A stretch of DNA of 64,000 bases from Escherichia phage BF17. Below the pieces are notes generated by a model that saw nothing but the letters and a program-made list of their open reading frames with translations, ran no database searches and was not told where the DNA came from. A program made the position numbers and the translations under genes. The stretch lies in sequence record MW822008.1; one strand, written 5' to 3'. Below, one piece after another: positions 12,306 through 62,168 of this stretch (positions within the stretch are counted from its first letter, which is position 1; every line of letters starts with the position of its first letter).

Positions 12306-12312
12306 GGTTTAT

Positions 12313-12849: not shown

Positions 12850-12875
12850 CACCCTCCGATTCTTTGTGATATAAT
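12846..12875 (+). promoter_or_regulatory. sigma70-like early promoter
   Basis: TTGACA (12846-12851), 18 nt spacer, TGaTATAAT (-10 at 12870-12875). Confidence 0.55.
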
Positions 12876-12908
12876 CTCTTTATATTAATTGTAAAGGGTT
12901 ATATCACA

Positions 12909-15609: not shown

Positions 15610-16169
15610 ATATCAATGATTACCAATTTCATAGGCTTGAATTTCGTCATTGTGTTGCATTTGCAAAAACATTGATGTGCATCATTGACACTCTTTCATC
15701 CAAACAATTTCGTAAGGATAATGATTTATTTCTGAAAAAAGGTCGTGTAACATCAACCGATATCGGTATTGAACTATTTGTTGATATCAGTGTTGATACC
15801 GGAGACAGTACAAGGGTTGGTTGTATAGGTCATATTGGTACACATTGCTTCACATGGAATCCAAATACAAGTCAAGTACGAATTGATTATAGAAATTCAC
15901 GTTGGGTTGATCTTAGTACTGAATCAGATTTAGAATCAGCTATGTTCCAGCTAAGTTTAATTCACAATCCTAATGAACTTCTTTACATTATTACTTTCAG
16001 TTATCTGTTACAAAACTACAATAAACCATCAGGTTTTTTTATAGAATCAGATATAGATGAAATTATGGAAGAGATTCCCAGTTTAAAGGATATTCTGGAA
16101 GAAAAAGATTTCTATGAAGACTTAAGAGATTTATACGACATGCACTTGGAGTTATTTAAGAATGGATAA
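15606..16169 (+). CDS. hypothetical protein, FQ-motif paralog family
   Basis: Motif ESAMFQLSLIHNPNEL. Confidence 0.6.
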   Translation: MNINDYQFHRLEFRHCVAFAKTLMCIIDTLSSKQFRKDNDLFLKKGRVTSTDIGIELFVDISVDTGDSTRVGCIGHIGTHCFTWNPNTSQVRIDYRNSRWVDLSTESDLESAMFQLSLIHNPNELLYIITFSYLLQNYNKPSGFFIESDIDEIMEEIPSLKDILEEKDFYEDLRDLYDMHLELFKNG

Positions 16170-16680
16170 AGATGATATTCTAATTAGACTAATTAATAGT
16201 TTAATAAAGTTCTCAAATAATGATGTCGATACATACAAAGTAGGGGATATTGAATACAAATCATTTGGTATGTACGGTGAGGATAAAACATATTATGCGT
16301 CAATGAAATTTCAAGATTTTCACGAGATGTTAATATCGTTATCATATGAAGATGTTGATCCAAGATGGAGTTCCAGTATTTCACTATCGAGAATGGTAAT
16401 TCGTAGTAAGCATCGTTATATTTCGTCAAAGAATACTCCTAACTTGATTAATATTGTGTTGAATGAAAATACAAATCCCCTATCTAAACATGATATCGTA
16501 CCGTTAACCGATGAAGTTCTTTTTCAATTGAGTACCATTTGTGATGAAGATGTGATATCATGTATGAAAATTTATGAGAAGGTTGGGAGTGATATTCCTA
16601 TGAACTATTACCTAACTATAGATGGAACGTACCTTCGAGATGATGTTTTAGCGTACATTGACAGTGTTTTACCAAAATAA
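16162..16680 (+). CDS. hypothetical protein, FQ-motif paralog family
   Basis: Motif DEVLFQLSTICDEDV. Confidence 0.6.
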   Translation: MDKDDILIRLINSLIKFSNNDVDTYKVGDIEYKSFGMYGEDKTYYASMKFQDFHEMLISLSYEDVDPRWSSSISLSRMVIRSKHRYISSKNTPNLINIVLNENTNPLSKHDIVPLTDEVLFQLSTICDEDVISCMKIYEKVGSDIPMNYYLTIDGTYLRDDVLAYIDSVLPK

Positions 16681-16702
16681 AGACCCGTATGGGTCTTTTT
16701 GT
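16681..16702 (+). terminator. intrinsic terminator
   Basis: agaccc-gtat-gggtct hairpin followed by TTTTT. Confidence 0.6.
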
Positions 16703-16711
16703 GTTTATGGC

Positions 16712-16740
16712 TTTACAAGAGCATTCAGGTGTGTTATACT
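16712..16740 (+). promoter_or_regulatory. sigma70-like early promoter
   Basis: TTTACA (16712-16717), 17 nt spacer, TATACT (16735-16740). Confidence 0.5.
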
Positions 16741-16767
16741 TGATTTTAACTAGAGTTGGAGGAATCT

Positions 16768-17334
16768 ATGAGTACTGAATTAATTAAAGAAGTCACATTA
16801 CTTCTGAAGCATTGTTTTAAGTTCATTCCTGATACTGGCTCACGCCAGTACATTAAAGTTAATGAGAAATATAACATCAATATCCTTGTATCTGAAACTG
16901 CGAGCAGTTATGCAAACATTGAGTTGGATTCTGAAGAAAAATATACAGTATTACAAATCATAGCAGATGTACAACGTAAACAAGATTATCGTTCTTCATT
17001 TTACAACGATCATCTGTGTGTTTGCTCAAACTTCAGTGAGAATAAAATTGTGTATAAGAATTTATACACACATGAAGTGATTGATACATATAATTATAAA
17101 ATTTCATCTGATGAATACAATGTTCTAATGTTCAACGCAAACCTTTTGTATGATGCCAGTACTGTACGCTGTTTAGAGTTAGCATATAAAATTCCAAAGA
17201 TCATGGAAAGAAAAGATTTGATTCACTTTAAAACTATTTTAAAATACAGTACAAAAGAATTAGAGGATTTAGTACAGGCTCTTAAGAATTTCATTAATGA
17301 ACATGTACCTGTTAAATTCGAGGATGCACAATGA
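16768..17334 (+). CDS. hypothetical protein, FQ-motif paralog family (degenerate motif)
   Basis: Track ORF 16756..17334; ATG 16768 after GGAGG. Confidence 0.5.
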   Translation: MSTELIKEVTLLLKHCFKFIPDTGSRQYIKVNEKYNINILVSETASSYANIELDSEEKYTVLQIIADVQRKQDYRSSFYNDHLCVCSNFSENKIVYKNLYTHEVIDTYNYKISSDEYNVLMFNANLLYDASTVRCLELAYKIPKIMERKDLIHFKTILKYSTKELEDLVQALKNFINEHVPVKFEDAQ

Positions 17335-17915
17335 ACCATATCAGAACTAAAATTTTGAGACTCATGCATGACATTGCAGAACTTTCAGAGATTCATGACA
17401 TTACAGAAATTGTTGAATTTGATAATTATCGACTGAAAATTGAAAACAAATCCAAACATCGTTTTGGTTCAGTTCAGTTGGATGTATATAAAACTTATGA
17501 ATTTTCTAAAAAAATTAAAAGTTCATGGGATACGATTACTATGTACATTCGCACATCCAGAAATCGTGAACGTATTGGTTCTATTTCTTCTAATATGGTA
17601 TTTGCGAATGCATTACATGAAAAAATGAATAAAATTGTAGAATCTGATTTCAGTGAAGATGATGGTTTTATTGGGTTGGATGTTCCACCAGAATTAGACC
17701 AAAGTGAAGATATTCGAGATGCATTCATTTTCCAGAAATCATTGTTGGACAATTACAAAGAATTCGAGTACTTAATGCTTTGTTACGATACTGCAAAAGT
17801 TCTTGATTGTGGTGAACTAGTTATGTACAATGATTTTATCAATTACAAGACTGATGTTCTGAATACACTACTTCAAAATATAGAATCGGTTAAGGAAAAA
17901 TATGAACGCTTATAG
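17331..17915 (+). CDS. hypothetical protein, FQ-motif paralog family
   Basis: Motif DAFIFQKSLLDNY. Confidence 0.6.
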   Translation: MNHIRTKILRLMHDIAELSEIHDITEIVEFDNYRLKIENKSKHRFGSVQLDVYKTYEFSKKIKSSWDTITMYIRTSRNRERIGSISSNMVFANALHEKMNKIVESDFSEDDGFIGLDVPPELDQSEDIRDAFIFQKSLLDNYKEFEYLMLCYDTAKVLDCGELVMYNDFINYKTDVLNTLLQNIESVKEKYERL

Positions 17916-18483
17916 TTATATGACAGAACGCCATCAGTTATTATATGATATCAGTAAAAAAATGCTATCAATTGTTGGTAGTGCGAAAGAAATTGAAAAA
18001 CAATATCTCATCCGTGATGTATCAATTTCATCCAAATGTTGGTCAAATGAATATTACGACCACGGTATTCTTACTATTTCTGGGGCCAGAAATATTTGTA
18101 TTGTAAAAAATAAAAGTAAAAGTAATGAAGAGTGTGAGATTAGAACCGATATACAAATTAAGGATGATGGAAGTTTTTCACATCACCCATTCCATATTAG
18201 TACTATTGGTGTTTTATATAATATTAAAGTACTATTCGGTGATGAAGAGTATGTGTTAAAAGCTATCAATCCAGATTCAAGTACAGTTGAAGAAGAACTG
18301 TTCCAGATGAGCACTGTTATACCTGAAGAGGTTCTTAGTACTGTTGTTTTTTGTAGTTTAATTTATCATACATACAAAAAGAACCAATTCGATTTCCACA
18401 TTTTAGGAACGTACATCTTCAATACTTTGAATGTTGATCGTTTAAAAGCATTAAATGCAGCAATGGATAAGGTGCTACAATGA
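17902..18483 (+). CDS. hypothetical protein, FQ-motif paralog family
   Basis: Motif EEELFQMSTVIPEEVL. Confidence 0.6.
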   Translation: MNAYSYMTERHQLLYDISKKMLSIVGSAKEIEKQYLIRDVSISSKCWSNEYYDHGILTISGARNICIVKNKSKSNEECEIRTDIQIKDDGSFSHHPFHISTIGVLYNIKVLFGDEEYVLKAINPDSSTVEEELFQMSTVIPEEVLSTVVFCSLIYHTYKKNQFDFHILGTYIFNTLNVDRLKALNAAMDKVLQ

Positions 18484-28838: not shown

Positions 28839-29360
28839 ATGTCGAAGAAGGATGCTTCGAAAAAACATTCAGTACATTTTAGTACTGGAAAAGATAACTG
28901 GACAACTCCAAAGGATTTCTTTGAAGATTTGGATGAACTCTGGGAATTTACACTAGATGCAGCATGTGTCAAAGAAACTGCATTGTGTGATAATTTTTTC
29001 ACTCCAGAAGATGATTCACTGTCACAGGATTGGGGAAATAATATAGTTTGGTTGAATCCACCATATAGTGACTTGAAAACTTGGTTATCTAAAGCAGTAG
29101 ATGCATATAATAACGGGGCAACTGTAGTTATTCTTGTACCCTCAAGAACCGATACAATTGCTTTTCAGGATTATGCTGCTAAAATATGTGATTGTATTTG
29201 TTTTATTAAGGGAAGATTGAGATTTGGTATACCAGAAGAACCCGATAAGAAAACAGATTCAGCACCATTTCCTTCGTGTCTGATAGTACTGGATAAGTAC
29301 TTAACCACTGCTAAAATCAATTATCTTAAATCTCTTGGGTTGGTGATGAAGAATTTATGA
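28839..29360 (+). CDS. DNA N6-adenine methyltransferase (phage Dam family)
   Basis: NPPY catalytic motif (WLNPPYSD); size and layout typical of phage N6A MTases. Confidence 0.8.
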   Translation: MSKKDASKKHSVHFSTGKDNWTTPKDFFEDLDELWEFTLDAACVKETALCDNFFTPEDDSLSQDWGNNIVWLNPPYSDLKTWLSKAVDAYNNGATVVILVPSRTDTIAFQDYAAKICDCICFIKGRLRFGIPEEPDKKTDSAPFPSCLIVLDKYLTTAKINYLKSLGLVMKNL

Positions 29361-29890
29361 AAGAAACATGCGTATTAACTTTTGGACGTGTTAATCCCGT
29401 ACATCGTGGACATGGTTTAGTTTTTGAAAAGGCCAAAACATTACAAGAACAGTACAATGCTGATTTAAAAATATATCTAAGCACCAGTACTGACAATATA
29501 AAAAACCCACTCCCACCTGAACTAAAAATGTATTATACAGAGGGATTCTATCCTTCAGTGCAAGAGAACATCTACACAGAAGACAATCTATTTGATATAA
29601 TGAGAGAACTGGATGGAAAGTACTTAGATGTTCTTTTCATATGTGGTTCTGACCGTATTGATTCTTTTCAAAAAACTCTTGACATGTACAATGGTAAGTT
29701 GTATAATTTTTGTAGTATAAAAGCAATTCAAGCAGGTATTGACCGTAATGTAAGTCAATATAGCTCAACACAAATGCGTAACTTCGCAAAAAATGAAGAT
29801 TTTGATAGTTTTCGTGAGTTTTTACCTGGAAATGACGAGGACTTAAAAATACAATTATTTGAAGACGTTATAAAATACATGAGGAAATAA
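29357..29890 (+). CDS. nucleotidyltransferase, NMN/NaMN adenylyltransferase-like
   Basis: GxFxPxHxGH motif (FGRVNPVHRGHG) and SSTxxR motif; ATGA-coupled to the MTase gene. Confidence 0.65.
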   Translation: MKETCVLTFGRVNPVHRGHGLVFEKAKTLQEQYNADLKIYLSTSTDNIKNPLPPELKMYYTEGFYPSVQENIYTEDNLFDIMRELDGKYLDVLFICGSDRIDSFQKTLDMYNGKLYNFCSIKAIQAGIDRNVSQYSSTQMRNFAKNEDFDSFREFLPGNDEDLKIQLFEDVIKYMRK

Positions 29891-31389: not shown

Positions 31390-31652
31390 ATTATAAAGAT
31401 TTCCTACTAACATACAAGATTATTCGAGATTTAGCACACGACAATGATAGCCCTAGTCTAGAAGACACATGCACTGAAATGATTCATACGATTCGTGGTA
31501 AGATTAAAAAAAAATTCAGTACTGTTATTATTGGTGATGACCATGCAGAATTTTCTGATATAATCATTAGACGTGATGGTAAAGTTGAGGTTCAGTACTA
31601 CACTGATTTTGGATTTACCAGTATTCCGTTGGAGATATTCCCTTGGGATTAA
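31386..31652 (+). CDS. hypothetical small protein, family B
   Basis: ATGA overlap; paralog of neighbours. Confidence 0.55.
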   Translation: MNYKDFLLTYKIIRDLAHDNDSPSLEDTCTEMIHTIRGKIKKKFSTVIIGDDHAEFSDIIIRRDGKVEVQYYTDFGFTSIPLEIFPWD

Positions 31653-31954
31653 ATTTAAATGATATACAATTCACTTATAAGATCCTATATGATTTGTATG
31701 ATGTATACCTTGTTAGTAACAACATAGGTTCACATAACCGATCCAAAGAACAACCATTTATTGATTTATATATTGAGTACTTAGATTCAGTAGGTGAATA
31801 TATAAAAAAGAATTACAGTACTTTTATCGATGGAAATGATAAATTCGATTTCTATGGTGTACAATCATATAATGGTATAATCCATGTTCAATTTCAGGAA
31901 ATAACCGATAGGGGATTTATCGAGATTAAAGTTGTGAAGTTGGTGAATTTATAA
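31643..31954 (+). CDS. hypothetical small protein, family B
   Basis: No in-frame ATG; TTG start 8 nt after GGAG; LNDIQFTYKILYDLY. Confidence 0.5.
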   Translation: MGLNLNDIQFTYKILYDLYDVYLVSNNIGSHNRSKEQPFIDLYIEYLDSVGEYIKKNYSTFIDGNDKFDFYGVQSYNGIIHVQFQEITDRGFIEIKVVKLVNL

Positions 31955-31964
31955 GAGGTTACAT

Positions 31965-32276
31965 ATGTTATTAAATGATATACAATTCACATACAAATTT
32001 TTGTATATCCAATACGCTACGGTTGATGCTGGAGAATATCTCTACAGTGAAATCTATCGTTCGGTATGGATAAAGTTTTTGGATGAATTACATGAATATT
32101 ACCATGATTTGTGCATAGTTCGTGATAATAAAATATACAAATTCCGCGATATTGTTAGTCATAGCGGTAAGCTACGATTGGAATTAAGTACTGATAGTGA
32201 TGTTGATTGGATTGGTGTAAATTTACTGGAGTTGGAGAATGAAAAACAACTTAAAGGAAATACAAGTATTTTATAA
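31965..32276 (+). CDS. hypothetical small protein, family B
   Basis: LLNDIQFTYKFLY near-identical N-terminus to previous. Confidence 0.55.
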   Translation: MLLNDIQFTYKFLYIQYATVDAGEYLYSEIYRSVWIKFLDELHEYYHDLCIVRDNKIYKFRDIVSHSGKLRLELSTDSDVDWIGVNLLELENEKQLKGNTSIL

Positions 32277-32523
32277 ATTCTTATACTTGTCATATGTAAA
32301 AGATGAGTACTATGAAAGTGTGTATTATTTTTTATGGCAACATTACCGTACTATAGTAAGAGATTTATATATAGGAAAATCTATCATATCCAATGGTGAA
32401 AAATGTATATGTACGGATGTAGTTAGTTTTAATGGTTCTTTAACACTGTGTTTCAGATGCGATAATAATAGTGGGTCATTTTCATTAAACGTATATCAGT
32501 TAGAAGGAATAAATTTTGAATAA
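32239..32523 (+). CDS. hypothetical small protein, family B
   Basis: KEIQVFYKFLYLSY; GGAG RBS. Confidence 0.55.
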   Translation: MKNNLKEIQVFYKFLYLSYVKDEYYESVYYFLWQHYRTIVRDLYIGKSIISNGEKCICTDVVSFNGSLTLCFRCDNNSGSFSLNVYQLEGINFE

Positions 32524-36396: not shown

Positions 36397-36660
36397 ATGA
36401 ATATTCAAGATAGATTACAATTACTGTACACACTTGAACAGGCTGCTTATGATCTTGTTCGAAAAATCTCAGATGAACTACCTAAAGGAACTAAAGTTCG
36501 TGTACGTGAGATGAATTATTTTTCTGGAGTAATTGAAGAACAAGTACTAACAGTGAATAAAGTAACATACTATGAATCTGAGTTGTCTATTCAGTGTGAA
36601 TCTGATGATGGATTAATATCATATTATGGAACTGATGTAGATATAGAGGTAATAAAATGA
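36397..36660 (+). CDS. hypothetical small protein, family C
   Basis: Track ORF 36352..36660; ATG 36397; LPKGTKVRVREM core. Confidence 0.5.
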   Translation: MNIQDRLQLLYTLEQAAYDLVRKISDELPKGTKVRVREMNYFSGVIEEQVLTVNKVTYYESELSIQCESDDGLISYYGTDVDIEVIK

Positions 36661-37799
36661 CCCTTTTGCAAATATATGAAGATTTAATGCACTTATGTAA
36701 TACAAACGATGCATTCTTTTATGTGGATCATAAAAGTCCTGCTGGTGGCACGTATCGTGTATTCAGTTATCGTCTAGCATCATACACTGATTTCATGCAA
36801 CCAAATGCGTTGGAAACCCGTGGCTCTATGTGGGAAATTGATGAAGAAGGTGACATGATACGTTGTGCAGCACGTACAATGAAAAAGTTCTTCAATGCTT
36901 ACGAGAATCCTGCTACAATGTTCCCTGCTAACACCACATGCGATGACATTGCGGTAGTGATGCCTAAGTTGGATGGCTCGATCATCAGTACTTATCGTGA
37001 TAATGATGGTGAGATTCGTTGTAAATCACATACTGCATTGTATTCTGACCATGCGATTAACAGCACTCGACTTATTAACGAGAACCAGAATTTGTATCAG
37101 TACATCGACGAAGCGGAACGTTTAGGTTACACAGTTAATATGGAGTATACAAGCCCAGAGTACCGAATTGTATTACCATATCAGGTAGAACAACTGTTTG
37201 TACTGAACGTTCGTCATCGTGTGAGTGGTGAGTTGCTTTGTGGTAAAGCACTACGTGATAAGTTTCCATGTCTTGCACAGTACAGTACTAATATGACTGG
37301 AAAAGATATTCATCACACTTTTCCGGTACGAAATACCTTCCGTGAAAGCGTGGAGGAAGTTCATAAAATGCTTGATATTGAGGGTTTTGTGTGCATCCTA
37401 AATAATGGGACAATGTGTAAAATAAAGACTGACTGGTACAGTTCATTACATCTTACAAAAGATAGTATTATTATTGATTCTCATTTATATGAAGCAGTAT
37501 TAAATGGTTCAAGTGATGATTTAAAACAATTGTTCAGTACTGATGAATATGCTATGCAAAAGATATTAAGAATGGAACAATTGGTATTTTCGTGCTATAA
37601 TGCATTACAAGATGAAGTAGAAAGCTTCGTCAAGGAACACAAGCACTTGGAGCGAAAGGAATTCGCAATGAAGGTTCAGGAGTGTTTAACTAATGAACTG
37701 AATCGTCAGGGCTTGGCCTTTGCAATGTATAACAATAAGAAAGTTGATTACAAAGAGACTCTTATAAAATACATGAAAATTGTACTAAAGGATTTTTAG
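36657..37799 (+). CDS. rnlA: RNA ligase 1
   Basis: N-terminus aligns with T4 RnlA (FFYVDHKSPAGGTYRVFSYRLASYTDF vs [27 protein letters not shown]); KxDG adenylation motif VMPKLDGS. Confidence 0.92.
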   Translation: MTLLQIYEDLMHLCNTNDAFFYVDHKSPAGGTYRVFSYRLASYTDFMQPNALETRGSMWEIDEEGDMIRCAARTMKKFFNAYENPATMFPANTTCDDIAVVMPKLDGSIISTYRDNDGEIRCKSHTALYSDHAINSTRLINENQNLYQYIDEAERLGYTVNMEYTSPEYRIVLPYQVEQLFVLNVRHRVSGELLCGKALRDKFPCLAQYSTNMTGKDIHHTFPVRNTFRESVEEVHKMLDIEGFVCILNNGTMCKIKTDWYSSLHLTKDSIIIDSHLYEAVLNGSSDDLKQLFSTDEYAMQKILRMEQLVFSCYNALQDEVESFVKEHKHLERKEFAMKVQECLTNELNRQGLAFAMYNNKKVDYKETLIKYMKIVLKDF

Positions 37800-38622: not shown

Positions 38623-39555
38623 ATGCCAACTATCACACTAACAGTTGGATTGCCTGGGTGTGGTAAAACTACATGGGCAGTGCAAGAGATTAAAAACGCC
38701 AAATCCAAGACTATCAACATCAACCGTGATGATATTCGTGAATCTATGGCTGGGTCACATGATGCTTACAAATTCAACGATGCTAATGAGCAGTACGTAA
38801 CTAATTTACAGTTCAGTGCAGCAAATTCAGCAGCAGAGAATGGTTGGAACATCATCATATCCGATACAAACCTTAAACAACATTTCCGTAATCTCTGGAA
38901 AGTATGGGCTAAAGATAATGGTTATGATTACAAAGAAAAGAACTTCTATGATGATTTTGTACCTAATGAAGACCGTGGTGCAGATGTTCATGAATTCTTT
39001 AAGATTAAAGAGTTCGTAAAACTTTGTAAGAAATATAACCTCCAGCGTGAGCGTTCAGTACAAGATGATATCATTGACACAATGGCAGATACGTACTATT
39101 ATAGTAAGGCATTACACATTGGTTACTATGGTAATTCACGCGAAGCTGCTATCATCGTTGATATCGATGGAACTCTTGCTCATAAATGGGGTCGTAATCC
39201 TTACGATGAAAGTACTGTTCTTCAGGATACACCTGATGAAGAAGTTATTTTGTCTATTATCGCTGAAGCAGTTTTTCATAAACGCAAGATTATCGTCATG
39301 AGTGGGCGTACTGAAGGGTGTCGTGCTGATACCGAACAGTGGCTTAAGAATTGGGGTGTTCCTTACGATGCATTGTTTATGCGAGATATCGATGATAAAC
39401 GTCCTGATGATGTTGTAAAATTCGACCTGTACATGAAAAATGTGGTTGATCATTACGATGTTAAAAAGGTATATGATGACCGCGATCAAGTTGTATTCAT
39501 GTGGCGTAAGCTACTTGGGTTGAAAGTTTTCCAAGTGGCTGAAGGAAATTTCTAA
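38623..39555 (+). CDS. pseT: polynucleotide 5'-kinase / 3'-phosphatase
   Basis: Walker A GLPGCGKTT; NINRDD; phosphatase DxDGT (IVDIDGTLA); aligns along its length with T4 Pnk. Confidence 0.93.
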   Translation: MPTITLTVGLPGCGKTTWAVQEIKNAKSKTININRDDIRESMAGSHDAYKFNDANEQYVTNLQFSAANSAAENGWNIIISDTNLKQHFRNLWKVWAKDNGYDYKEKNFYDDFVPNEDRGADVHEFFKIKEFVKLCKKYNLQRERSVQDDIIDTMADTYYYSKALHIGYYGNSREAAIIVDIDGTLAHKWGRNPYDESTVLQDTPDEEVILSIIAEAVFHKRKIIVMSGRTEGCRADTEQWLKNWGVPYDALFMRDIDDKRPDDVVKFDLYMKNVVDHYDVKKVYDDRDQVVFMWRKLLGLKVFQVAEGNF

Positions 39556-44030: not shown

Positions 44031-44258
44031 ATGAAAGTAATTCAAGTTATGGTAGAAAAATACCAAACTGAAGATGGTCGTATTTTTGATTCAGCTAAAC
44101 AAGCTGAACACCATGAACGTATTATTTCTGGTGCACGTAAAGTATGTCCTACATGTAATGGAACACAACAAGTACCGTCAGAAGATTACCGCAGCTTTTA
44201 TGCTTGTCCACACTGTGATGGGAAAGGCTACGTAGAAAAACAAGAGGTATGGAAATGA
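44031..44258 (+). CDS. zinc-ribbon small protein
   Basis: CPTCNG ... CPHCDG. Confidence 0.5.
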   Translation: MKVIQVMVEKYQTEDGRIFDSAKQAEHHERIISGARKVCPTCNGTQQVPSEDYRSFYACPHCDGKGYVEKQEVWK

Positions 44259-44668
44259 AATTGTATTGCTTAACTAATATGTACTGCCAAGGTGTCCAAG
44301 CTGGTATTCAAGCATTCCATGCTGGTGTTAAACTAATTAAAGAATATGAAGGTACTGCTTTCAGTACTATTATTGATGAATGGTACTATGAACACGAAAC
44401 TATTGTAGTACTAAATGCTGGTGGACATGATAAGTTAAATTCTTATTATAACAACCTTAGCAAACAGGGAAAAGTTCCGTTTGCCAAATTCAATGAAGCT
44501 GGATTGAATGATGCTATTACCTGTGTAGCAGTACTGTGTACGTCTGAAATGATTGAAGACATGGCTGTTATGCGTATGAATCTTCCTGCTGGTGATCAAC
44601 TAATGCAAGTAAAATATGGTGCATTGTTTGACACATTAAAAGCAATCAGCACAATGAGGACAATTTGA
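44249..44668 (+). CDS. hypothetical protein
   Basis: 139 aa track ORF. Confidence 0.5.
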   Translation: MEMKLYCLTNMYCQGVQAGIQAFHAGVKLIKEYEGTAFSTIIDEWYYEHETIVVLNAGGHDKLNSYYNNLSKQGKVPFAKFNEAGLNDAITCVAVLCTSEMIEDMAVMRMNLPAGDQLMQVKYGALFDTLKAISTMRTI

Positions 44669-51132: not shown

Positions 51133-51628
51133 TACTAATATCTGGTTAGATAACATAATCAAGACATTAGAATTAATTAAACTTACATTACAAAAAACTA
51201 CTGATATTGAAATTAATATTAAACAAGAAATATTAAACTATTATCATAGAAACAAATATAGCACGTTTATCTCTAAATTAATTTATGGATTATATGATAT
51301 TGAAGATATTTGCATCGGTTACAGTACTGGTATTTGCTTCACAGTTAATGGTTTAAAAAATGATTTAAATTTCAGACTTTCCGATGAAGAGCAAGATTTT
51401 CGTAGATTTTGTGATAATATTATGGATACAGATAAAATTACATTTGTTATTGAATTAAATCAAACGTGGTCTACATATGCAGATAAACCATTTGAAATTA
51501 ATGAAACAGATGTGTTAAACTATATTCGAGTTATGAAAATTCATGATTTGTGTAAAAACGCATTGTTAAGTATTGGAGCTTATAATGAAACATACGACTT
51601 GGTTGAAGATAGCAGAAGTAGTTGCTGA
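51104..51628 (+). CDS. hypothetical protein
   Basis: 174 aa track ORF; overlaps cd start by ~44 nt, 3' end uncertain. Confidence 0.45.
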   Translation: MKYTHLSIDDTNIWLDNIIKTLELIKLTLQKTTDIEINIKQEILNYYHRNKYSTFISKLIYGLYDIEDICIGYSTGICFTVNGLKNDLNFRLSDEEQDFRRFCDNIMDTDKITFVIELNQTWSTYADKPFEINETDVLNYIRVMKIHDLCKNALLSIGAYNETYDLVEDSRSSC

Positions 51629-52064
51629 GGAAAGTAAATGTATTTCACAAAAAGTTGGTTGTGTTATTGTTAAAAATAACCGAGTATTGAGTACTGGATA
51701 CAATGGTACTCCATCAAAACAACCAAATTGTTGTGATGTGAATCAACACTTAGTCAATGATGGACGTTTTCAAGACTGGGTTAGTGATGAAGCAAAGCAT
51801 GAACATCATGAGTGGAGTAATATTCATGAAATCCATGCTGAAATGAACGCTTTACTCTATAGTTCTCCTACTGAACGTCAAGGTGCTACTCTTTACACAA
51901 CACTACAACCATGTTATACTTGTTCTAAGTTGATCGCAGGTAGTGGAATTTCACGTGTAATTTATCTCAAAAATTATCCTCGTACACCACCAGAAGCTAT
52001 TAAAGTACTGGAAGATGCTGGAATTATTGTTAATTGCATTTATGATAAGGGTCTTGATAAATGA
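51585..52064 (+). CDS. cd: dCMP deaminase
   Basis: Track ORF 51573..52064; ATG 51585 after GGAG; zinc motifs HAEMNA and PCYTC; N-terminus aligns with T4 Cd. Confidence 0.9.
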   Translation: MKHTTWLKIAEVVAEESKCISQKVGCVIVKNNRVLSTGYNGTPSKQPNCCDVNQHLVNDGRFQDWVSDEAKHEHHEWSNIHEIHAEMNALLYSSPTERQGATLYTTLQPCYTCSKLIAGSGISRVIYLKNYPRTPPEAIKVLEDAGIIVNCIYDKGLDK

Positions 52065-52915: not shown

Positions 52916-52950
52916 TTATATCTTCCTAAACAAAATTGAGGACTTGTTAT

Positions 52951-53559
52951 ATGAAAAGACTATGGCTTGAAGTGATACAAGCAGCAATGTTTCTATTGTT
53001 AATAAATTTTCCAGCCAGTGCTGGTATTGAAAGTAAAAATGTGATAAAGTATAATCCTGAAACCCGAAATGTATATTTCATATCAGATATTACAGATGGG
53101 TCACTCAAGAGAATGATAGAGTTGTATGATAAAGAACACTATGATACCATCACAATTACATCTCCTGGTGGTGATTTTGATGCAGGTATTCGAATGGCAA
53201 ACTTTGTTAGAGACAATGGGATAAATTTAATTGTTTCTAGGTATTGCAATTCAGCATGTACTGTGGTATTCTTTAGTGTATCTCCCGAAAAGCGATATAT
53301 GACAAATCGCTCAGTACTGGGTCTTCATAACATTTCGATTAAAAGTAATGTTACTGATGGTGATAATTCATTTGTGTCTGTAAGACAGTTATCAACTTTT
53401 ACCGAAGAAATGGCAACAAAGGTAGGTTTCCTTTTTTCACTATATGCAGCAAATGGAATCCCACCAGAAGTTCTATTTAGAGTTAGTCGTTCTCGTGGTG
53501 AAGATGTTGTAATATTAACAAAACCAGAACTGGTTTTTTACGGTTCAGTCAAACAATAA
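52951..53559 (+). CDS. secreted ClpP-fold serine peptidase-like protein
   Basis: Track ORF 52936..53559; ATG 52951; signal peptide MKRLWLEVIQAAMFLLLINFPASA; SPGGDFDAG motif, candidate Ser (CNSAC) and His (GLHN). Confidence 0.55.
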   Translation: MKRLWLEVIQAAMFLLLINFPASAGIESKNVIKYNPETRNVYFISDITDGSLKRMIELYDKEHYDTITITSPGGDFDAGIRMANFVRDNGINLIVSRYCNSACTVVFFSVSPEKRYMTNRSVLGLHNISIKSNVTDGDNSFVSVRQLSTFTEEMATKVGFLFSLYAANGIPPEVLFRVSRSRGEDVVILTKPELVFYGSVKQ

Positions 53560-53629: not shown

Positions 53630-53890
53630 ATGACAAACATCCAAAACTTGACATCTATTATTTTTTATGCTACTGTAGTAATGTATGCTACAGTTATTTT
53701 TCTAACAGTTTTCATTTACAAAGATTATCGTAATGGCTTTATTGATTCAACTACAATGAAGTTCAATTCAAAATTCGAAGCAATAATTTATTATGTACTA
53801 TCAACTTCATACTTGGTGTGCCTAATGTTGTTAGGAGCACTAATTTATATCTTATACACAACATTATTTGCAATTGGAGCTATTTTATGA
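53630..53890 (+). CDS. small membrane protein
   Basis: 86 aa, two hydrophobic helices. Confidence 0.5.
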   Translation: MTNIQNLTSIIFYATVVMYATVIFLTVFIYKDYRNGFIDSTTMKFNSKFEAIIYYVLSTSYLVCLMLLGALIYILYTTLFAIGAIL

Positions 53891-54480
53891 CCTGTATTAT
53901 TGCACACACTAACGGAGTAAGTTCTTTTATTGCTGGGGATAAGTTAGGAAGCAATGGATTTACAAAAACTGTTCAAACTGAACCAAAGGTATTCGAGAAA
54001 GAATTTATCAAGTTACATGATGATGGACTAACTAGAACTAAAGAAGTAATGGCATTGGGTTATACTACATCATTTCGTATGGGTCAGTTGTTAAATTATA
54101 ACCTTAATTTACCTGAACAAGATGCTAGTCAAACATTTTCACAATATTTGGTTCTTAAAGTTATTCCAATTATTCGTCAAATGTTTAAAGAAGAATGGGG
54201 TGCACGAGATGCATCACAAGATGTAGGTGGTGGACAATTTATCATTCTCCACAATCATACAATCTATGAAGTTCAAGAAGACTTTTCAGTACTACAACCT
54301 AAAACAAGAATTACCGCAGTAGGTAGTGGGACATATCATGCAATTGCAGCAATGCAAGCATATATTGAAGTTGAGAACGAATCTAAAAAACCACTACACG
54401 AACGTATCAAATCAATTTTTAAAATTGTTAGTGATAATGTAACAAGCGTAAGCGAAGAGTTTGATGTTTTAAAATATTAA
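53887..54480 (+). CDS. HslV/proteasome beta-like Ntn-hydrolase peptidase
   Basis: Track ORF 53818..54480; ATG 53887 overlaps upstream stop; Thr2 after Met; IAGD and AVGSGTYHAIAAMQAY align with HslV. Confidence 0.6.
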   Translation: MTCIIAHTNGVSSFIAGDKLGSNGFTKTVQTEPKVFEKEFIKLHDDGLTRTKEVMALGYTTSFRMGQLLNYNLNLPEQDASQTFSQYLVLKVIPIIRQMFKEEWGARDASQDVGGGQFIILHNHTIYEVQEDFSVLQPKTRITAVGSGTYHAIAAMQAYIEVENESKKPLHERIKSIFKIVSDNVTSVSEEFDVLKY

Positions 54481-54507
54481 AAGTACTAATATTATAAGAG
54501 AGAATAG

Positions 54508-54702
54508 ATGATGGCATACACAATTTATGAATGGGTTTTGAGTTTTTTTATAGTTTTTTCTATTGTTGTAATTTATAACAATACTAAATGCTTATATAGG
54601 GACTTGAAATCCAATGGTTATCACAAAGATAATAATTTTATGTATGCCTATCATATTGGAATCATTCTGTTATTATCAATATATTTAATTGGTTTTTTAT
54701 AA
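54508..54702 (+). CDS. small membrane protein
   Basis: 64 aa, two hydrophobic helices. Confidence 0.45.
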   Translation: MMAYTIYEWVLSFFIVFSIVVIYNNTKCLYRDLKSNGYHKDNNFMYAYHIGIILLLSIYLIGFL

Positions 54703-54711
54703 GGATTGAAT

Positions 54712-55464
54712 ATGATATCAGAAAAATTTATAAGCAATGAAGGTAAAAAGCGATTACTGATTATATCAGGTGCAGGACTTTCTGTTGAAAGTGGTATGGA
54801 ACCTTTTCGATTTGATGATGGTTTGTGGGATACATTTAAAATTAATGATGTATGTAACATTGCTAGTTTAACTACAAAATATCATGTTGTTCATTCTTTC
54901 TATAATACATTACGTGTAAAATTGGGACAATGCGAACCGAATGCAATGCATTATTTTATAAAATCGTTAGAAGATCAATATGGTGATTGCTTCCTTCATA
55001 TGACTTCTAACATGGACGATCTTTATACTCGTATTGGTGGTCATGAGCTTAAACTTCATGGAAACTTGTGCGAAGTTATTGAAAATTATAGTATCAATTC
55101 CGATGATTATAATGTTATTAACTGCGGATACGAACCATACATACCAAAACATGATGTTTTTGCTAAACCAAATGTAGTAATGATTGGAGAATATCATCGT
55201 TATGTTGATGGTATTCGCTTACCAATTTACGAAGAACGAAATAATGTGTTGAAATCTCTTAATGAAAATGATACAGTTATTGTAATTGGTAGTAGCGATA
55301 CAGTACTGGTATGGTCGAGATTAGCAGCAGCATTACCATGTTATAGTGTTAATGTTAACATTCGTAAAAATGATAATGATTTTTTGTTTAATGAAAAAGT
55401 TATCAAGCCAGCAACCAAAGCAATACCGCATCTAGAGACTATAATTAAGGAACGTATGAAATGA
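54712..55464 (+). CDS. Sir2/CobB-family sirtuin-like protein
   Basis: Track ORF 54706..55464; ATG 54712 after AAGGA; GAGLSVESGMEPFR, catalytic His LHGN, VIVIGSS; aligns with CobB. Confidence 0.8.
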   Translation: MISEKFISNEGKKRLLIISGAGLSVESGMEPFRFDDGLWDTFKINDVCNIASLTTKYHVVHSFYNTLRVKLGQCEPNAMHYFIKSLEDQYGDCFLHMTSNMDDLYTRIGGHELKLHGNLCEVIENYSINSDDYNVINCGYEPYIPKHDVFAKPNVVMIGEYHRYVDGIRLPIYEERNNVLKSLNENDTVIVIGSSDTVLVWSRLAAALPCYSVNVNIRKNDNDFLFNEKVIKPATKAIPHLETIIKERMK

Positions 55465-56012
55465 GTGTTAAAGAAGTTCCCTTTGGTGAATATGGCACAC
55501 GTGCAAATTTTGTATTTTGTTATTTCTTTGCAAGAAAATGCAACCCTTACAAAAACTATGAGTTGAATGATATACCAGAAGTAAATTTAGTATTACTGCA
55601 ATTACGATGGGATGGTCTTCTTGGTGGATGTGGTGGAACCGTAGAAAGTACTGATATCTCACTAGAAGATGCGTTGCGTCGTGAAGTTCAAGAAGAAATG
55701 GATTACAATATTTTTGTTTCCCATCTTCGACCACTCAAAACTTTTGAAATTTACCCAGGTGCAAACAGTCACAGTTTTAGCTATGAAGTAACCTATGACG
55801 AGTTGAAACACATTAGAGATGGATACACTAATGCTAAACATGCAAGTGCAGAAGTTGCTGGTGTAAATTTATGTCATATTTCTCGTTATTCTAAGGGACA
55901 AAATCGAGAAGCGGGATATAATAATCTTATGACACAGAACTTCATCGGTACAGCAAAACAAGAATTGGAGTATCTGGTTCAAAAAGAAAACTTACTAATT
56001 AGTTATCTATAG
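55461..56012 (+). CDS. Nudix hydrolase
   Basis: ATGA-coupled to the sirtuin gene; Nudix box GGTVESTDISLEDALRREVQEE. Confidence 0.7.
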   Translation: MSVKEVPFGEYGTRANFVFCYFFARKCNPYKNYELNDIPEVNLVLLQLRWDGLLGGCGGTVESTDISLEDALRREVQEEMDYNIFVSHLRPLKTFEIYPGANSHSFSYEVTYDELKHIRDGYTNAKHASAEVAGVNLCHISRYSKGQNREAGYNNLMTQNFIGTAKQELEYLVQKENLLISYL

Positions 56013-56021
56013 GAGTTTAAC

Positions 56022-56342
56022 ATGTCTTACTCAATGTTTTTGGATGATATTCGTGATGCAAATCTATATTATCCAAACCAAGATATGGTGGTATGTCGTG
56101 ACTTTAAAAGTGCATGTGAATATGTTATTGAAAATGGAATTCCAGCATTTGTATCATTCGACCATGACTTGGGTGATGTGAGCGAAGACGAAAAGACTGG
56201 ATATTCTTTTGCTAAGTTTCTTATTGATTATATGTTTGATAATAATATTAAAGAACCGTTTGAGTACTTTGTTCACAGTAGTAATCCTGTTGGTAAAATT
56301 AATATTGAAACATACTTAAACAATGGATTTAACGCATTATGA
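56022..56342 (+). CDS. hypothetical protein
   Basis: 106 aa track ORF. Confidence 0.5.
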   Translation: MSYSMFLDDIRDANLYYPNQDMVVCRDFKSACEYVIENGIPAFVSFDHDLGDVSEDEKTGYSFAKFLIDYMFDNNIKEPFEYFVHSSNPVGKINIETYLNNGFNAL

Positions 56343-56641
56343 TTCAAACACACATCAAAAGTCTTATTTGTACTGTTCTGTTAGGTGCAGGAGTTCTTTG
56401 GTTCGGACAGTATCACGAGAACACTAAGCGTACCAACATTCACTACAATACCGCAGAAGTTGTTAGTTTAGGACAATGTAGCGAGTCCAAATGTTCATTT
56501 ATGTATAAAACCCAAAGTGGTGAAGTACGTAATGGACTATCAAGAGAACCAGTTTCAATTGGTCAACTTGTTTACCAGGAGTGCTGGGAAGAAAAGGTTC
56601 GAGGTTCACGTTGCTATGTTGAATACGAACCAAATATGTAA
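56339..56641 (+). CDS. membrane-anchored Cys-containing protein
   Basis: N-terminal hydrophobic segment; four Cys. Confidence 0.5.
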   Translation: MIQTHIKSLICTVLLGAGVLWFGQYHENTKRTNIHYNTAEVVSLGQCSESKCSFMYKTQSGEVRNGLSREPVSIGQLVYQECWEEKVRGSRCYVEYEPNM

Positions 56642-56701
56642 TAATCCGAGTCAATAACATTAGTCGAGTACAAGGATGTACTCATAACTCAAGGATGTTT
56701 T

Positions 56702-58141
56702 ATGAAAAAATATACAATTGACACAAACGTACTACTATCTGACCCGAATGCATCTATTGCTTTTGATGGTGCTGCAATCATTCTACCATTTACAGTACTG
56801 GAAGAATTGGATTCAATTAAGAGTCGTAATGTAGATGTTTCACGCGATGCTCGTGTTGCTATTCGTAACATTGAAGCAATTATTGCAGATGCATCACATG
56901 ATGAGATTAGTAGTACTGGTGTTAATATTGCTGATGTTCATACCAATATGAATCCTGATAGCAAATTGTTTGTTATTACAAACGAAGAAGCTGAAGCACT
57001 AATTCGTACTAAAGGTTCAGAAGAGAAAGTTCAAACCCTTCTCAAAAGCACAGTACCTGATGATAAAATCATTCTGGTAGCTTTAGCAACAGAATCAGTA
57101 CTGGTAACTCGTGATATCAACATGCGTATCAAAGCACTAAGTTATGGTGTCGAGGTACAAGATTATCGCCATGATATTGTTATTGGTGATAGTGATTTGA
57201 TTCACATTGGTCAACACCATTTGGAAATTAATTTTTGGGAAGTATATAGCAACTTATCCAATACTAATATTCAATCCGAACAAGTTGGTCGTCGTTTGTA
57301 TCATTACATTTCTAAAAGCTTGATTGAACATTTGCTTCCACAAAATCTATGCATCGGTGATTATCTATATGATGATGCAGACGTATTATTTGTGTACGAA
57401 GGTCAATCAGCAATTGAGGAAGATGATGGAACACTAACACCAGAAGATATTTTGGTATTCCAAGATATTGGACAATCAGTAGCTTTACGTGCTAAAGTAT
57501 GGGATATTAAAGCAAAGAATATCCAACAAGCACTCGCCATCAACAGTATTCTCGATCCTGATGTACATCTAACAGTACTGCTAGGTTCTGCTGGTACTGG
57601 TAAAACACTAATTACGATTGCTACTGCATTAGAATTAGTACTGGAAAAACGTAAATACGACCGAATCATCTTCTCTAAAACTCAAGACTCACAGTTTGAA
57701 GATATTGGTTTCTTGCCAGGTTCAGAAGCAGAAAAAGTGATTCCATTCTGTGGAGCCGCAATTGACGCGTTAGAGTTTCTTCATAAAGATGATGCTAACC
57801 CACAAGGTAGTATTGAAGAGATTATGAAACGTAATGTTATTCAATTTAAAGCACTAAACTTTGTACGTGGACGTTCATTCACCAACACTATTCTAGTAGT
57901 TGATGAATTCCAAAACATTACACCTGCACAAGCCAAAACAATCTTGACACGAGCAGGATTAAACTGTAAAGTAGTAATTATGGGTAACTTGAGTCAGATT
58001 GACAGTAAGTTTATTAGTCCTGTTAACAGTGGTTTGACATATGTAACTGAGAAGTTTAAAGATTGGGCAGGTTGTCGTGTCATCGAACTTGAAGGTGTTG
58101 TTCGCTCACCACTAGCTGAATTTGCTGAAGAAAATATGTAA
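56702..58141 (+). CDS. phoH: PIN-domain PhoH-like ATPase (PhoH2 type)
   Basis: N-terminal PIN-like region (DTNVLL, LEELD); Walker A GSAGTGKT; Walker B VVDEFQN. Confidence 0.88.
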   Translation: MKKYTIDTNVLLSDPNASIAFDGAAIILPFTVLEELDSIKSRNVDVSRDARVAIRNIEAIIADASHDEISSTGVNIADVHTNMNPDSKLFVITNEEAEALIRTKGSEEKVQTLLKSTVPDDKIILVALATESVLVTRDINMRIKALSYGVEVQDYRHDIVIGDSDLIHIGQHHLEINFWEVYSNLSNTNIQSEQVGRRLYHYISKSLIEHLLPQNLCIGDYLYDDADVLFVYEGQSAIEEDDGTLTPEDILVFQDIGQSVALRAKVWDIKAKNIQQALAINSILDPDVHLTVLLGSAGTGKTLITIATALELVLEKRKYDRIIFSKTQDSQFEDIGFLPGSEAEKVIPFCGAAIDALEFLHKDDANPQGSIEEIMKRNVIQFKALNFVRGRSFTNTILVVDEFQNITPAQAKTILTRAGLNCKVVIMGNLSQIDSKFISPVNSGLTYVTEKFKDWAGCRVIELEGVVRSPLAEFAEENM

Positions 58142-58398: not shown

Positions 58399-58502
58399 TT
58401 CATTTGAAGACATATTGTGGAGTTCTTAATAAATACTTTTATAAGAATAATAATACTTTTTATTAAATTAAAAAGAACTCCATGTGTTATTTCAGTTTTT
58501 CG

Positions 58503-58529
58503 TCCCTGTCTTTTGGCAGGGATTTTTTA
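58503..58529 (+). terminator. intrinsic terminator
   Basis: ccctg...caggg hairpin followed by ATTTTTT. Confidence 0.5.
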
Positions 58530-58624: not shown

Positions 58625-59182
58625 ATGTTTTTTGACCAAACATTTACGTTGTATCACGATTCTGGTAAAGTTGAGATTATTGATAATCTGTTAGAGTACA
58701 TTGCGGAACATGACGGTATAGACCGTTTCCACAGTAAGATGAAATTCGATTTAGCTGAATTCAACAAAAAGAATCGTGAAACATTTTGGAAGAACCGTTT
58801 CTATTACGAAATGTATCCAGAAAAGTTCGTAGGTTATTATCTTTGTACTGAAAAAGGATTACTTGTATCTCCTGATTTACTTATGGGTGAATACATGATA
58901 CTCTATAATGAGTACTGGGAACATAAACGTAAAGCTCGTGATAAGGAATGGCGACATAAGCGTTCGTATATGTACAAACATAACCACTCCCGATACAAGC
59001 GTCCTAAGACTCAGCAAGAGCGTCGTATGGCTTGTGCAGTACTGAAGGATGAGGGGGAACCTGAAATACGTGGAAGACGTAAGATGCGTTCATTACCATC
59101 GTATTGGGACGATATCAGAACAAGACACAGTACTGGCTGGAAATACAGTACTAAACGTAAACATCAATACAAAGGGAGCTAA
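58625..59182 (+). CDS. basic protein, Lys/Arg-rich C-terminal half
   Basis: AAAGGAG RBS; 185 aa. Confidence 0.55.
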   Translation: MFFDQTFTLYHDSGKVEIIDNLLEYIAEHDGIDRFHSKMKFDLAEFNKKNRETFWKNRFYYEMYPEKFVGYYLCTEKGLLVSPDLLMGEYMILYNEYWEHKRKARDKEWRHKRSYMYKHNHSRYKRPKTQQERRMACAVLKDEGEPEIRGRRKMRSLPSYWDDIRTRHSTGWKYSTKRKHQYKGS

Positions 59183-61378: not shown

Positions 61379-61755
61379 AAATCACACGCTTTGGTAAAAC
61401 CTTTGAACTAAACATTGTTTCTGTTTATAAAAAAGGAAAATCAGGAAAGTTAAGCACTGATAATATTAGATTTGTTATTAGTGATTATTATGATATGTTT
61501 AATCAGGCATTTGAAGAAAATAAATTTGGTTTGATTTTATGTAAACCACAAAAACCGGAATTAGGTATTTTGGATTTAAGAACTGATAAGTCTGATTTTA
61601 TTGGTAATCTTGATATTATTGAATTTAAAGTTGATATATCAAAAGAACATTTTAGAGTTAAAAACTATAATTATTACAAAGTTGATATTAATTCTATCGA
61701 AGTACAAAACGTACTTGATGAACTTATCAGTAATAATTCGTGTTTTACTAAATGA
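61375..61755 (+). CDS. hypothetical protein
   Basis: 126 aa; ATGA overlap. Confidence 0.55.
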   Translation: MKITRFGKTFELNIVSVYKKGKSGKLSTDNIRFVISDYYDMFNQAFEENKFGLILCKPQKPELGILDLRTDKSDFIGNLDIIEFKVDISKEHFRVKNYNYYKVDINSIEVQNVLDELISNNSCFTK

Positions 61756-61767
61756 GAAAAAAATATC

Positions 61768-62001
61768 ATGAAAAATATATTCATTACATTAACAATATTT
61801 GTATCCATTATTCTCTGTGGTTGTGCTCCTAAAGTTGATGAGATGGATGCTGAAATCATCCGTCAAGGTTTAACAAAACTAAATCACCAAGGAACACTAT
61901 ACGCATGTCATACTATGCGTCATGGGCAAGATCTTAATCTCATGTGCAGGAAGATTGTGAATCGCAAACGTCTTAATACTGTTCCGAAGGATGCACAATG
62001 A
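61768..62001 (+). CDS. small putative lipoprotein
   Basis: Signal peptide MKNIFITLTIFVSIILCGC with lipobox-like LCGC. Confidence 0.5.
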   Translation: MKNIFITLTIFVSIILCGCAPKVDEMDAEIIRQGLTKLNHQGTLYACHTMRHGQDLNLMCRKIVNRKRLNTVPKDAQ

Positions 62002-62168
62002 AAGAAGTAATTGACTACAAATGTAAAAATTGTGGCAAAGATAAGGGTAAGCATTCAGTACAAGGGATGGCTTGCCCGAATCCAGGTCGTGGTAATTTCA
62101 GCGGGTTCAGTACTGAAAAGTCTTACGAACCGGATCATACCAAACCTGTAATGGGTTATAAATTATGA
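61998..62168 (+). CDS. small Cys-containing protein (56 aa)
   Basis: Untracked ORF; ATGA overlaps at both ends; CKNCGK motif. Confidence 0.4.
   Translation: MKEVIDYKCKNCGKDKGKHSVQGMACPNPGRGNFSGFSTEKSYEPDHTKPVMGYKL

Follow-up and report, generated by a model that had tools for sequence, protein, structure and literature searches.

Zinc-Less Sirtuin in a Conserved Jumbo-Phage Gene Block of Escherichia Phage BF17: A Candidate for NAD+-Dependent RNA-End Repair

Iyer, Burroughs, Anantharaman, and Aravind (2022, Viruses 14:1977; PMC9503650, section 3.7.3) described a jumbo-phage gene neighborhood that combines a sirtuin with 2H, Nudix, cREC, and PIN proteins. They predicted that this sirtuin acts like KptA/Tpt1, removing 2'-phosphates from RNA by use of nicotinamide adenine dinucleotide (NAD+), and that 2H, cREC, HAD, and Nudix proteins either prepare the RNA end or degrade ADPr>P (ADPr: ADP-ribose; PMC9503650). 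The function published for this neighborhood is a prediction, and the present analysis independently reproduces its gene contexts. We examined a 64,000-nucleotide (nt) stretch of Escherichia phage BF17 (record MW822008.1; the window, to whose positions all coordinates refer), in which a sirtuin gene overlaps the gene of a Nudix hydrolase. The run from the sirtuin to PIN-PhoH lies entirely on the + strand with intergenic gaps of -4 to 60 nt, and a further open reading frame (ORF) marks the downstream edge:

54712..55464, + strand: zinc-less CobB-like (class III-like) sirtuin, 250 amino acids (aa); Pfam SIR2, PHROG 2162, AlphaFold2 (AF2)/Foldseek
55461..56012, + strand: NUDT16-like Nudix hydrolase, 183 aa; Pfam Nudt16-like, PHROG 9999
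56022..56342, + strand: cREC (cyclic-phosphate-processing receiver-like) protein, 106 aa; Pfam cREC_REC, 1.5e-22
56339..56641, + strand: small membrane-anchored protein between cREC and PIN-PhoH, 100 aa; PHROG 14661 "membrane protein", 4e-44
56702..58141, + strand: PIN-PhoH (PhoH2-type) protein, predicted RNase and RNA helicase, 479 aa; Pfam PIN_4 7e-20, PhoH 7e-44
58625..59182, + strand: conserved 185-aa ORF on the downstream border of the syntenic block; PHROG 12793 (unknown function), 2e-91

A block of sirtuin, NUDT16-like Nudix, cREC, membrane protein, and PIN-PhoH is conserved among jumbo phages, and BF17 carries it in the form that belongs to the PBECO4/121Q clade. With the published neighborhood (Serratia phage BF type) it shares the sirtuin clade, the Nudix, cREC, and PIN(-PhoH) partners, and their order. 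In contrast to that neighborhood, the PBECO4/121Q clade has separate genes for Nudix and cREC and lacks 2H, and our searches did not find the flanking NAMPT and NMNAT-Nudix genes there either; an HslV-like peptidase and a 64-aa transmembrane ORF take their place.

The genes are already annotated in dozens of deposited genomes, and both the neighborhood and the hypothesis about its function are in print. Positions 54000-57000 of the window are 99.5-99.9% identical to the ~350 kb jumbo coliphages ECO103 4-12-1, G17, phAPEC6, and PBECO4, and 96% identical to 121Q. Deposited relatives label the gene pair "Sir2-like / NAD-dependent deacylase" and "nudix hydrolase". What we add is a census of zinc ribbons, a connection between zinc loss and neighbors of RNA-end processing or NAD salvage, the NUDT16-like assignment of the Nudix protein, the Acb1-family identity of the relatives' 2H together with its absence from the PBECO4 clade, and a re-examination of an NMNAT claim, which turned up no specific support. 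This claim is part of an earlier sequence-only account of the window (the original prediction), which had singled out the sirtuin and Nudix genes and left out cREC, PIN-PhoH, the Nudix-cREC fusions, the NUDT16-like identity, the RNA ligase (Rnl1) and polynucleotide kinase (Pnkp) genes, and the published RNA-repair prediction.

The sirtuin and its missing zinc ribbon

The sirtuin frame begins with ATG at 54712, 8 nt downstream of a Shine-Dalgarno-like AAGGA, and ends with TGA at 55462-55464; the mechanical ORF opens at TTG 54706. The translated protein scores 73.1 bits against Pfam SIR2 (PF02146; E 3.6e-20, cutoff 24) and matches PHROG 2162 "Sir2" at 2e-77. It contains the motifs G20-A-G-L-S-V-E-S-G-M-E-P-F-R33, T-S-N100-M-D102-D, L-H116-G-N, and G193-S-S. 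Across an alignment of 27 family members, residues G20, G22, S27, G28, N100, D102, D103, H116, G159, and E160 are invariant, and S24 is kept in at least 90% of the sequences. These data bear out the coordinates, the NAD-binding motif, the catalytic His, and the GSS motif of the original prediction. They also answer the possibility it raised that catalytic residues might be substituted: those of the NAD pocket and the active site are intact.

In canonical sirtuins, a zinc module helps build the peptide-binding platform. The BF17 protein has no such four-cysteine module, as had been noted before: C120 and C138 are the sole cysteines of the zinc-ribbon region, and neither is conserved across the family. 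A wider comparison agrees. We took 80 viral loci with sirtuin relatives and classed their neighbors by iterated profiles and Pfam; the census comprises 79 phage loci, with 69 zinc-less and 10 zinc-containing sirtuins. No CxxC occurs in 63 of the 79 phage-clade sirtuins, while two CxxC pairs are present in 73 of 77 cellular homologues from bacterial genomes. Loss of the zinc module is clade-wide among these phage sirtuins, and the zinc-less proteins form a phage-specific clade; a genome scan for close cellular relatives returned solely ordinary zinc-containing sirtuins of 24-34% identity.

Among solved sequences, E. coli CobB (E ~1e-22), Sir2Af, and SIRT5 come nearest. The AF2 model (predicted local distance difference test, pLDDT, 91.7) leads to the same proteins: Foldseek places E. 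coli CobB at the top (E 7e-17, TM score 0.77-0.86, 28% identity), with Sir2Af and SIRT5 next, and the 50 matches listed are all CobB, Sir2Af, SIRT5, or Sir2Tm. With CobB and SIRT5 the phage protein shares the Rossmann NAD pocket, the catalytic His, the Asn/Asp pair, and the overall fold. It differs from them by the lack of zinc cysteines, by Y-x-x-x-R in place of Y-x-x-R, by an inserted beta-hairpin near residues 161-175 that is peculiar to the clade, and by equivalog scores below cutoff (at best 93 bits against the NCBIfam CobB/Sir2 equivalogs, which call for 221-395 bits). Of the class III residues, the Tyr (Y64) is invariant and the partner Arg is shifted by one residue in the jumbo members (Y-N-T-L-R68); T5-like sirtuins retain the canonical Y-N-K-R. 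We infer that invariant Y64 and R68 occupy the site where class III sirtuins have their anion-binding Y-x-x-R pair.

Immune SIR2 NADases (ThsA, DSR1/2, SIR2-HerA, SIR2-APAZ) also lack a zinc ribbon and carry the catalytic His/Asn, and the original prediction had likened the BF17 protein to them. This likeness did not hold up, since no immune or defense-type SIR2 was matched by PADLOC at E <= 0.01 or stood among the 50 fold matches listed, the Pfam match is to the classical SIR2 family, and the best matches are CobB, Sir2Af, and SIRT5. The phage sirtuin is a single-domain protein with no SLOG, HerA, Ago/APAZ, or large N- or C-terminal domain partner, and its neighbors are Nudix, cREC, and PIN-PhoH.

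Partner enzymes and gene order across phages

The Nudix frame runs from ATG 55461 to 56012, with AAGGA ~12 nt upstream, and its start forms a 4-nt ATGA overlap with the sirtuin stop. The overlap with a Nudix gene (box REVQEE) is thus present as predicted; the translational coupling proposed along with it is an interpretation of that overlap. The protein matches Pfam Nudt16-like (PF22327; 8e-19, 68.6 bits, cutoff 27), NUDIX (5e-7), and PHROG 9999 "nudix hydrolase" (1e-90); for this protein and the sirtuin, NCBIfam concurs with Pfam and PHROGs on Nudix and SIR2. Its Nudix box reads G-G-T-V-E...R74-E-V-Q-E78-E79, and every jumbo-phage orthologue has E62, R74, E75, E78, and E79. Among PDB sequences it matches human NUDT16 and Xenopus X29 best (E ~3e-12, residues 37-179), with a near full-length alignment and the same extended Nudix box; the phage protein differs from both by its distance (~30% identity) and by its fusion to cREC in relatives. 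On these alignments we class the phage Nudix as NUDT16-like. Human NUDT16 cleaves protein-bound ADP-ribose pyrophosphate; at RNA phosphate ends it strips off ADPr, and the TRPT1 product is among its substrates (PMC6582358). It is also a decapping enzyme that removes NAD and flavin adenine dinucleotide (FAD) caps from RNA (PMC7337524).

A distant NUDT16-like Nudix (33% identity; locus L099 in our numbering, 7001-8183) adjoins an NT5C 5'-nucleotidase, near a CCA-adding enzyme, and has neither sirtuin nor cREC beside it. Members of the NUDT16-like family thus also occur in other settings, phage or bacterial.

The cREC protein, a family named in a jumbo-phage survey by the group of Iyer et al. (PMC7824862), scores 80.5 bits against Pfam PF20274 (cREC_REC, cutoff 27). 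It carries the motifs LDDxRD, FDHDLG(D/E), GY, and VHSxNP, with the conserved acidic residues of a receiver-like active site, and LDDxRD, FDHDLG, and VHSxNP are common to jumbo and rV5-like phages. A sequence search for a solved relative of cREC returned none. PhoH2 proteins have been described as RNA helicase/RNases (PMC5499597; PMC7824862). All four predicted enzymes (sirtuin, Nudix, cREC, and PIN-PhoH) retain their catalytic motifs.

Loci L003-L018 (Rak2/PBECO4-type; L017 ends after the sirtuin) share one gene order, sirtuin, Nudix, cREC, membrane ORF, PIN-PhoH, 185-aa ORF, with sirtuin identities that go down to about 41%. At ten of these loci (L009-L018; L009 is Serratia phage BF), Nudix and cREC form one ~300-aa protein with both Pfam domains. 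The stop/start overlap between sirtuin and Nudix is confined to the PBECO4/121Q clade; among the relatives the spacing is a 9-nt gap (L009) or an extra ORF of 95-123 aa (L004, L006-L008, L098). The membrane ORF holds the same position in all complete Rak2-like loci L003-L018 and is absent in L098 and L100. PIN-PhoH always lies downstream of Nudix-cREC in jumbo loci, and the 185-aa ORF family was found downstream in 14 of them. In IMG/VR, this Nudix subfamily occurs solely in 15 jumbo contigs, with the sirtuin adjacent in 15/15. Two loci of one distant lineage, L100 and L101, hold Nudix-cREC-PIN-PhoH without an adjacent sirtuin. At the sirtuin position they encode a 248-aa protein, which we rejected as a divergent sirtuin (hhalign probability 0.2).

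Upstream of the sirtuin, most jumbo relatives (not L005/RaK2) also carry NAMPT and an NMNAT-Nudix fusion, and L098, a more distant phage contig, has the same complete gene set, with sirtuin, Nudix, cREC, and PIN-PhoH again in this order. A 2H phosphoesterase of 148-151 aa lies just upstream of the sirtuin in L004, L006-L018, and L098, and is likewise missing from L005/RaK2. This 2H passes the Pfam threshold for Acb1 (anti-CBASS; 3.6e-15; L009 7311-7757, L004 7537-7983, L098 4953-5408), and a role as an esterase of cyclic nucleotides or cyclic phosphates, delivered with the virion, is possible. Existing records annotate it as "structural protein" in Pectobacterium phage CBB, Xanthomonas phage XbC2, and some Erwinia phages, and as "RNA ligase" in RefSeq records.

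Zinc-less sirtuins adjoin RNA-end-processing or NAD-salvage genes in three phage lineages. Besides the jumbo phages, these are the T5-like phages, where the sirtuin T5.102 shares one annotated early operon with the HAD_SAK_2 ("Swiss-army-knife") RNA-repair phosphatase T5.105 and two DUF7415 proteins, and the rV5-like phages, with the order RNA ligase, cREC, P-loop kinase, sirtuin, ATP-dependent ligase. Within the parts of the T5 record that were read (the first 50 kb and 52-60 kb), no RNA ligase is annotated. At loci L080 and L081, the gene immediately before the sirtuin encodes a HIGH nucleotidyltransferase. Beside the 10 zinc-containing phage sirtuins, no gene for RNA-end processing occurs; one of them (L049) adjoins NAMPT and NMNAT-Nudix. 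Two other zinc-containing members (L072 6656-8723, L075 6668-8732) occur in a different context of nitroreductase, YkuD L,D-transpeptidase domain, and sirtuin. RefSeq T5 (NC_005859) labels T5.105 (L183 5589-6095) as "Sir2 (NAD-dependent deacetylase)". Since Pfam identifies this protein as HAD_SAK_2 (4e-20) and the true sirtuin is T5.102, the RefSeq name seems to be a misannotation inherited from a PHROG label.

Candidate functions of the block

The sirtuin is probably an active NAD-consuming enzyme that is functionally tied to the processing of an ADP-ribose derivative by Nudix and cREC. In the specific reading that we favor over its rivals, though it falls short of what we would call probable, it may ADP-ribosylate RNA 2'-phosphates at the expense of NAD+, so that the block would serve RNA repair. 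That the zinc-less clade as a whole (Rak2/PBECO4-like jumbo, T5-like, and rV5-like) might be a sirtuin-fold analogue of Tpt1 is a reading that we regard as rather doubtful.

According to the RNA-repair proposal, the acceptor that the sirtuin ADP-ribosylates would be a non-peptide anion in place of the normal acyl-lysine peptide, with an RNA 2'-phosphate as the most plausible candidate. The 2'-phosphate would attack C1'' of NAD+ with release of nicotinamide. The Nudix enzyme would cut the pyrophosphate of ADP-ribose, free or attached to RNA, to AMP and phosphoribose, and PIN-PhoH would supply RNA unwinding and cleavage. In the relatives, adjacent NAMPT and NMNAT would recycle nicotinamide to NAD+. 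The net role would be to keep tRNA and mRNA usable after attack by host ribonucleases.

Several observations count in favor of this proposal. Sirtuin chemistry proceeds by attack at C1', after which the His-activated 2'-OH gives a 1',2'-cyclic intermediate. Tpt1 chemistry runs via a 1'',2''-cyclic product (PMC11417386), and we read this parallel as support. The proposed sequence of NAD+-dependent ADP-ribosyl transfer to phosphate and formation of a 1'',2''-cyclic product would resemble that of Tpt1/KptA, as do the gene contexts with ligase, kinase, and cyclic phosphodiesterase partners. In contrast to the sirtuin, Tpt1 belongs to the ART superfamily with an unrelated fold, and functional analogy alone is proposed; none of the block's genes matched Tpt1 in searches of Pfam, NCBIfam, and the PDB. 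A non-peptide anionic acceptor would fit the missing zinc module and invariant Y64/R68. The activity of NUDT16 on ADP-ribosylated RNA ends, the conservation of the block with its Nudix-cREC fusion, and the linkage to RNA-end enzymes in three separate architectures (jumbo, T5, and rV5-like), which the census shows for zinc-less sirtuins and for none of the 10 with zinc, argue in the same direction. So does the presence of further RNA-related genes in the window:

36657..37799, + strand: T4 Rnl1-type RNA ligase, ~17 kb upstream of the block; Pfam RNA_lig_T4_1 9e-16, T4_Rnl1_C 7e-17
38623..39555, + strand: T4 Pnkp-type polynucleotide kinase/phosphatase; Pfam HAD_PNKP 9e-44, AAA_33 4e-13
44249-44668: PTH2-type (archaeal/eukaryotic-type) peptidyl-tRNA hydrolase-like ORF; Pfam 2e-5, just over threshold

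A number of points weigh against RNA repair. All functional assignment is guilt by association, and our literature search found no experimental study of a phage sirtuin, cREC, or phage NUDT16-like enzyme. The 79 loci amount to about three lineages, so that the counts given above are not independent events. By sequence and fold, the sirtuin is nearest to a bona fide protein deacylase, CobB. The lineage of L100 and L101 indicates that a sirtuin is not obligatory next to the other enzymes. A 2H protein, which would make the 2'-phosphate, is absent from the PBECO4/121Q group records of the phage collection. The T4-type Pnkp/Rnl1 route leaves no 2'-phosphate, PIN nucleases are not known to make cyclic phosphate ends, and the E. 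coli host presumably has KptA already. Finally, the sirtuins are acidic (isoelectric point, pI, 4.5-6.1); the phage Rnl1 and Pnkp share this trait, and we discarded charge and pI as an uninformative proxy for RNA binding.

If the prediction is true, the reach of sirtuin chemistry would go beyond acyl-lysine to RNA phosphate, and the Tpt1 reaction would have a second fold, unrelated to the first, that carries it out. cREC would receive its first assigned activity. It would also explain the presence of a sirtuin in T5-like, rV5-like, and jumbo coliphages, all of which are used in phage therapy and as models. T5 is a tractable phage and the annotated early operon that holds T5.102 is small, so the question is directly testable.

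The original prediction held that function is not decidable from sequence, and we agree: deacylase or ADP-ribosyltransferase activity and counter-defense stay live rivals. An ordinary CobB-type lysine deacylase would reset acetylation or succinylation of host or phage proteins, with Nudix and cREC just clearing O-acyl-ADP-ribose or ADP-ribose. We consider this unlikely, even though the best matches are E. coli CobB, Sir2Af, and SIRT5, every residue of the NAD pocket and the catalytic site is conserved, the class III Tyr is invariant with its Arg displaced by one, and the public records annotate the gene in this way. Nudix enzymes acting on O-acetyl-ADP-ribose are known in eukaryotes, which also fits. 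A deacylase does not easily account for the clade-wide loss of a zinc module that is kept in 73/77 cellular homologues, or for a score (93 bits) far under every NCBIfam CobB equivalog cutoff (243-395 bits), and it leaves the cREC, PIN-PhoH, RNA ligase/kinase, and HAD-SAK neighbors unexplained.

Counter-defense against NAD-based immunity appears improbable to a similar degree. The block would then destroy NAD-derived or cyclic-nucleotide signals, or recycle the ADP-ribose left by host NADases toward NAD+ resynthesis. Two reports describe a NARP2-type pathway of NAMPT and NMNAT-Nudix as counter-defense (10.1101/2024.02.11.579819; PMC13464706), and genes of this type directly adjoin the block in most jumbo relatives. 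The adjoining 2H with its passing Acb1 score and the HIGH nucleotidyltransferase directly upstream of the sirtuin in L080/L081 speak for the same function, and Iyer et al. argued that phage Nudix and cREC proteins mostly target soluble ADPr derivatives (PMC9503650). The NARP3 genes (PnuC and NadR-like; PMC13464706) belong to unrelated families, and we rejected NARP3 as a match. A sirtuin that consumes NAD+ is, however, hard to square with a unit that protects NAD+, and NAD-salvage neighbors would be no less expected for a sirtuin whose reaction just needs NAD+ and frees nicotinamide. The BF17 clade, moreover, keeps the block without a 2H/Acb1-like gene, and no NAMPT orthologue or recognizable NMNAT was found there.

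This last point concerns the NAD/ADP-ribose toolkit of the original prediction, one element of which was an "NMNAT-like" gene:

29357..29890, + strand: HIGH-superfamily nucleotidyltransferase ("NMNAT-like"); Pfam CTP_transf_like 17.1 bits against a cutoff of 21

The ORF has HxGH and SSTxxR motifs and matches PHROG "cytidyltransferase" (1e-57), falls below the NCBIfam cutoffs, and has no PDB sequence match. Its AF2 model (pLDDT 87) retrieves CoaD/PPAT, then FAD synthetase, then NadD in Foldseek, all weakly with TM scores of about 0.6. It was also compared with real phage NMNAT-Nudix by BLASTP. From sequence and model, it appears to be a generic HIGH-family nucleotidyltransferase whose identity as NMNAT is neither supported nor excluded. 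Elsewhere in the window, tblastn found no NAMPT, NMNAT-Nudix, or 2H, and the 60 best of 1,842 phage NAMPT matches (to ~35% identity) contain no record of the PBECO4/121Q group, a result that does not amount to an exhaustive scan of whole genomes. The toolkit therefore holds for the relatives, where NAMPT and NMNAT-Nudix flank the block, and not clearly for BF17, because its window lacks these genes and its NMNAT-like ORF scores below cutoffs.

Somewhat less likely still, in our view, is an RNA-turnover unit of Nudix, cREC, and PIN-PhoH, in which the NUDT16-like enzyme would remove 5' NAD caps or 5' pyrophosphate and PIN-PhoH would then unwind and cut the RNA, the sirtuin being a frequent neighbor with a separate job. 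In its favor, NUDT16 acts in decapping, deNADding, and deFADding (PMC7337524), PhoH2 proteins combine RNA helicase and RNase activity (PMC5499597), the three genes persist without an adjacent sirtuin in L100/L101, and an extra ORF parts sirtuin from Nudix in several relatives. Against it stand the adjacent sirtuin in 15/15 IMG/VR contigs with this Nudix subfamily, the rV5-like phages, where cREC adjoins the sirtuin although this Nudix is missing, and the stop/start overlap in BF17, which points to co-expression.

Other genes and signals of the window

Transcription signals around the block were searched by consensus. One terminator-like hairpin may mark the end of the transcription unit:

58502..58523, + strand: terminator-like hairpin, 9-bp stem and T run, possible transcription-unit end; consensus scan

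The region contains 6 such hairpins with 3.1 +/- 1.9 expected, which is not clearly above chance. A promoter scan was uninformative (45 sites, 40 +/- 6 expected), and tRNA and Rfam scans of the window found nothing.

Just upstream of the sirtuin lie an HslV-family peptidase-like ORF (53818-54480, PHROG 1040) and a ClpP/NfeD-like "protease" with an N-terminal signal or transmembrane segment (52936-53559, PHROG 26024). Together they hold the position of the relatives' 2H and NAD-salvage genes. The PTH2-like ORF shares its block with Rnl1, Pnkp, and an ATP-dependent DNA ligase, and two calcineurin-like phosphoesterases are also encoded in the window. Two dCMP-deaminase-like genes occur within 10 kb, one at 51573-52064 and a second at about 61700-62100, which we deduce from the annotated relative PP886230 (CDS0250); anaerobic ribonucleotide reductase genes come next.

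Finally, positions 4449-18483 contain tandem paralogue families of small + strand ORFs that related records call "hypothetical". One family has 8 members (6185-9571, 13382-15083) and another 5 (4449-6175, 11618-11980), and smaller families are found at 31643-32523 and 13842/17902.

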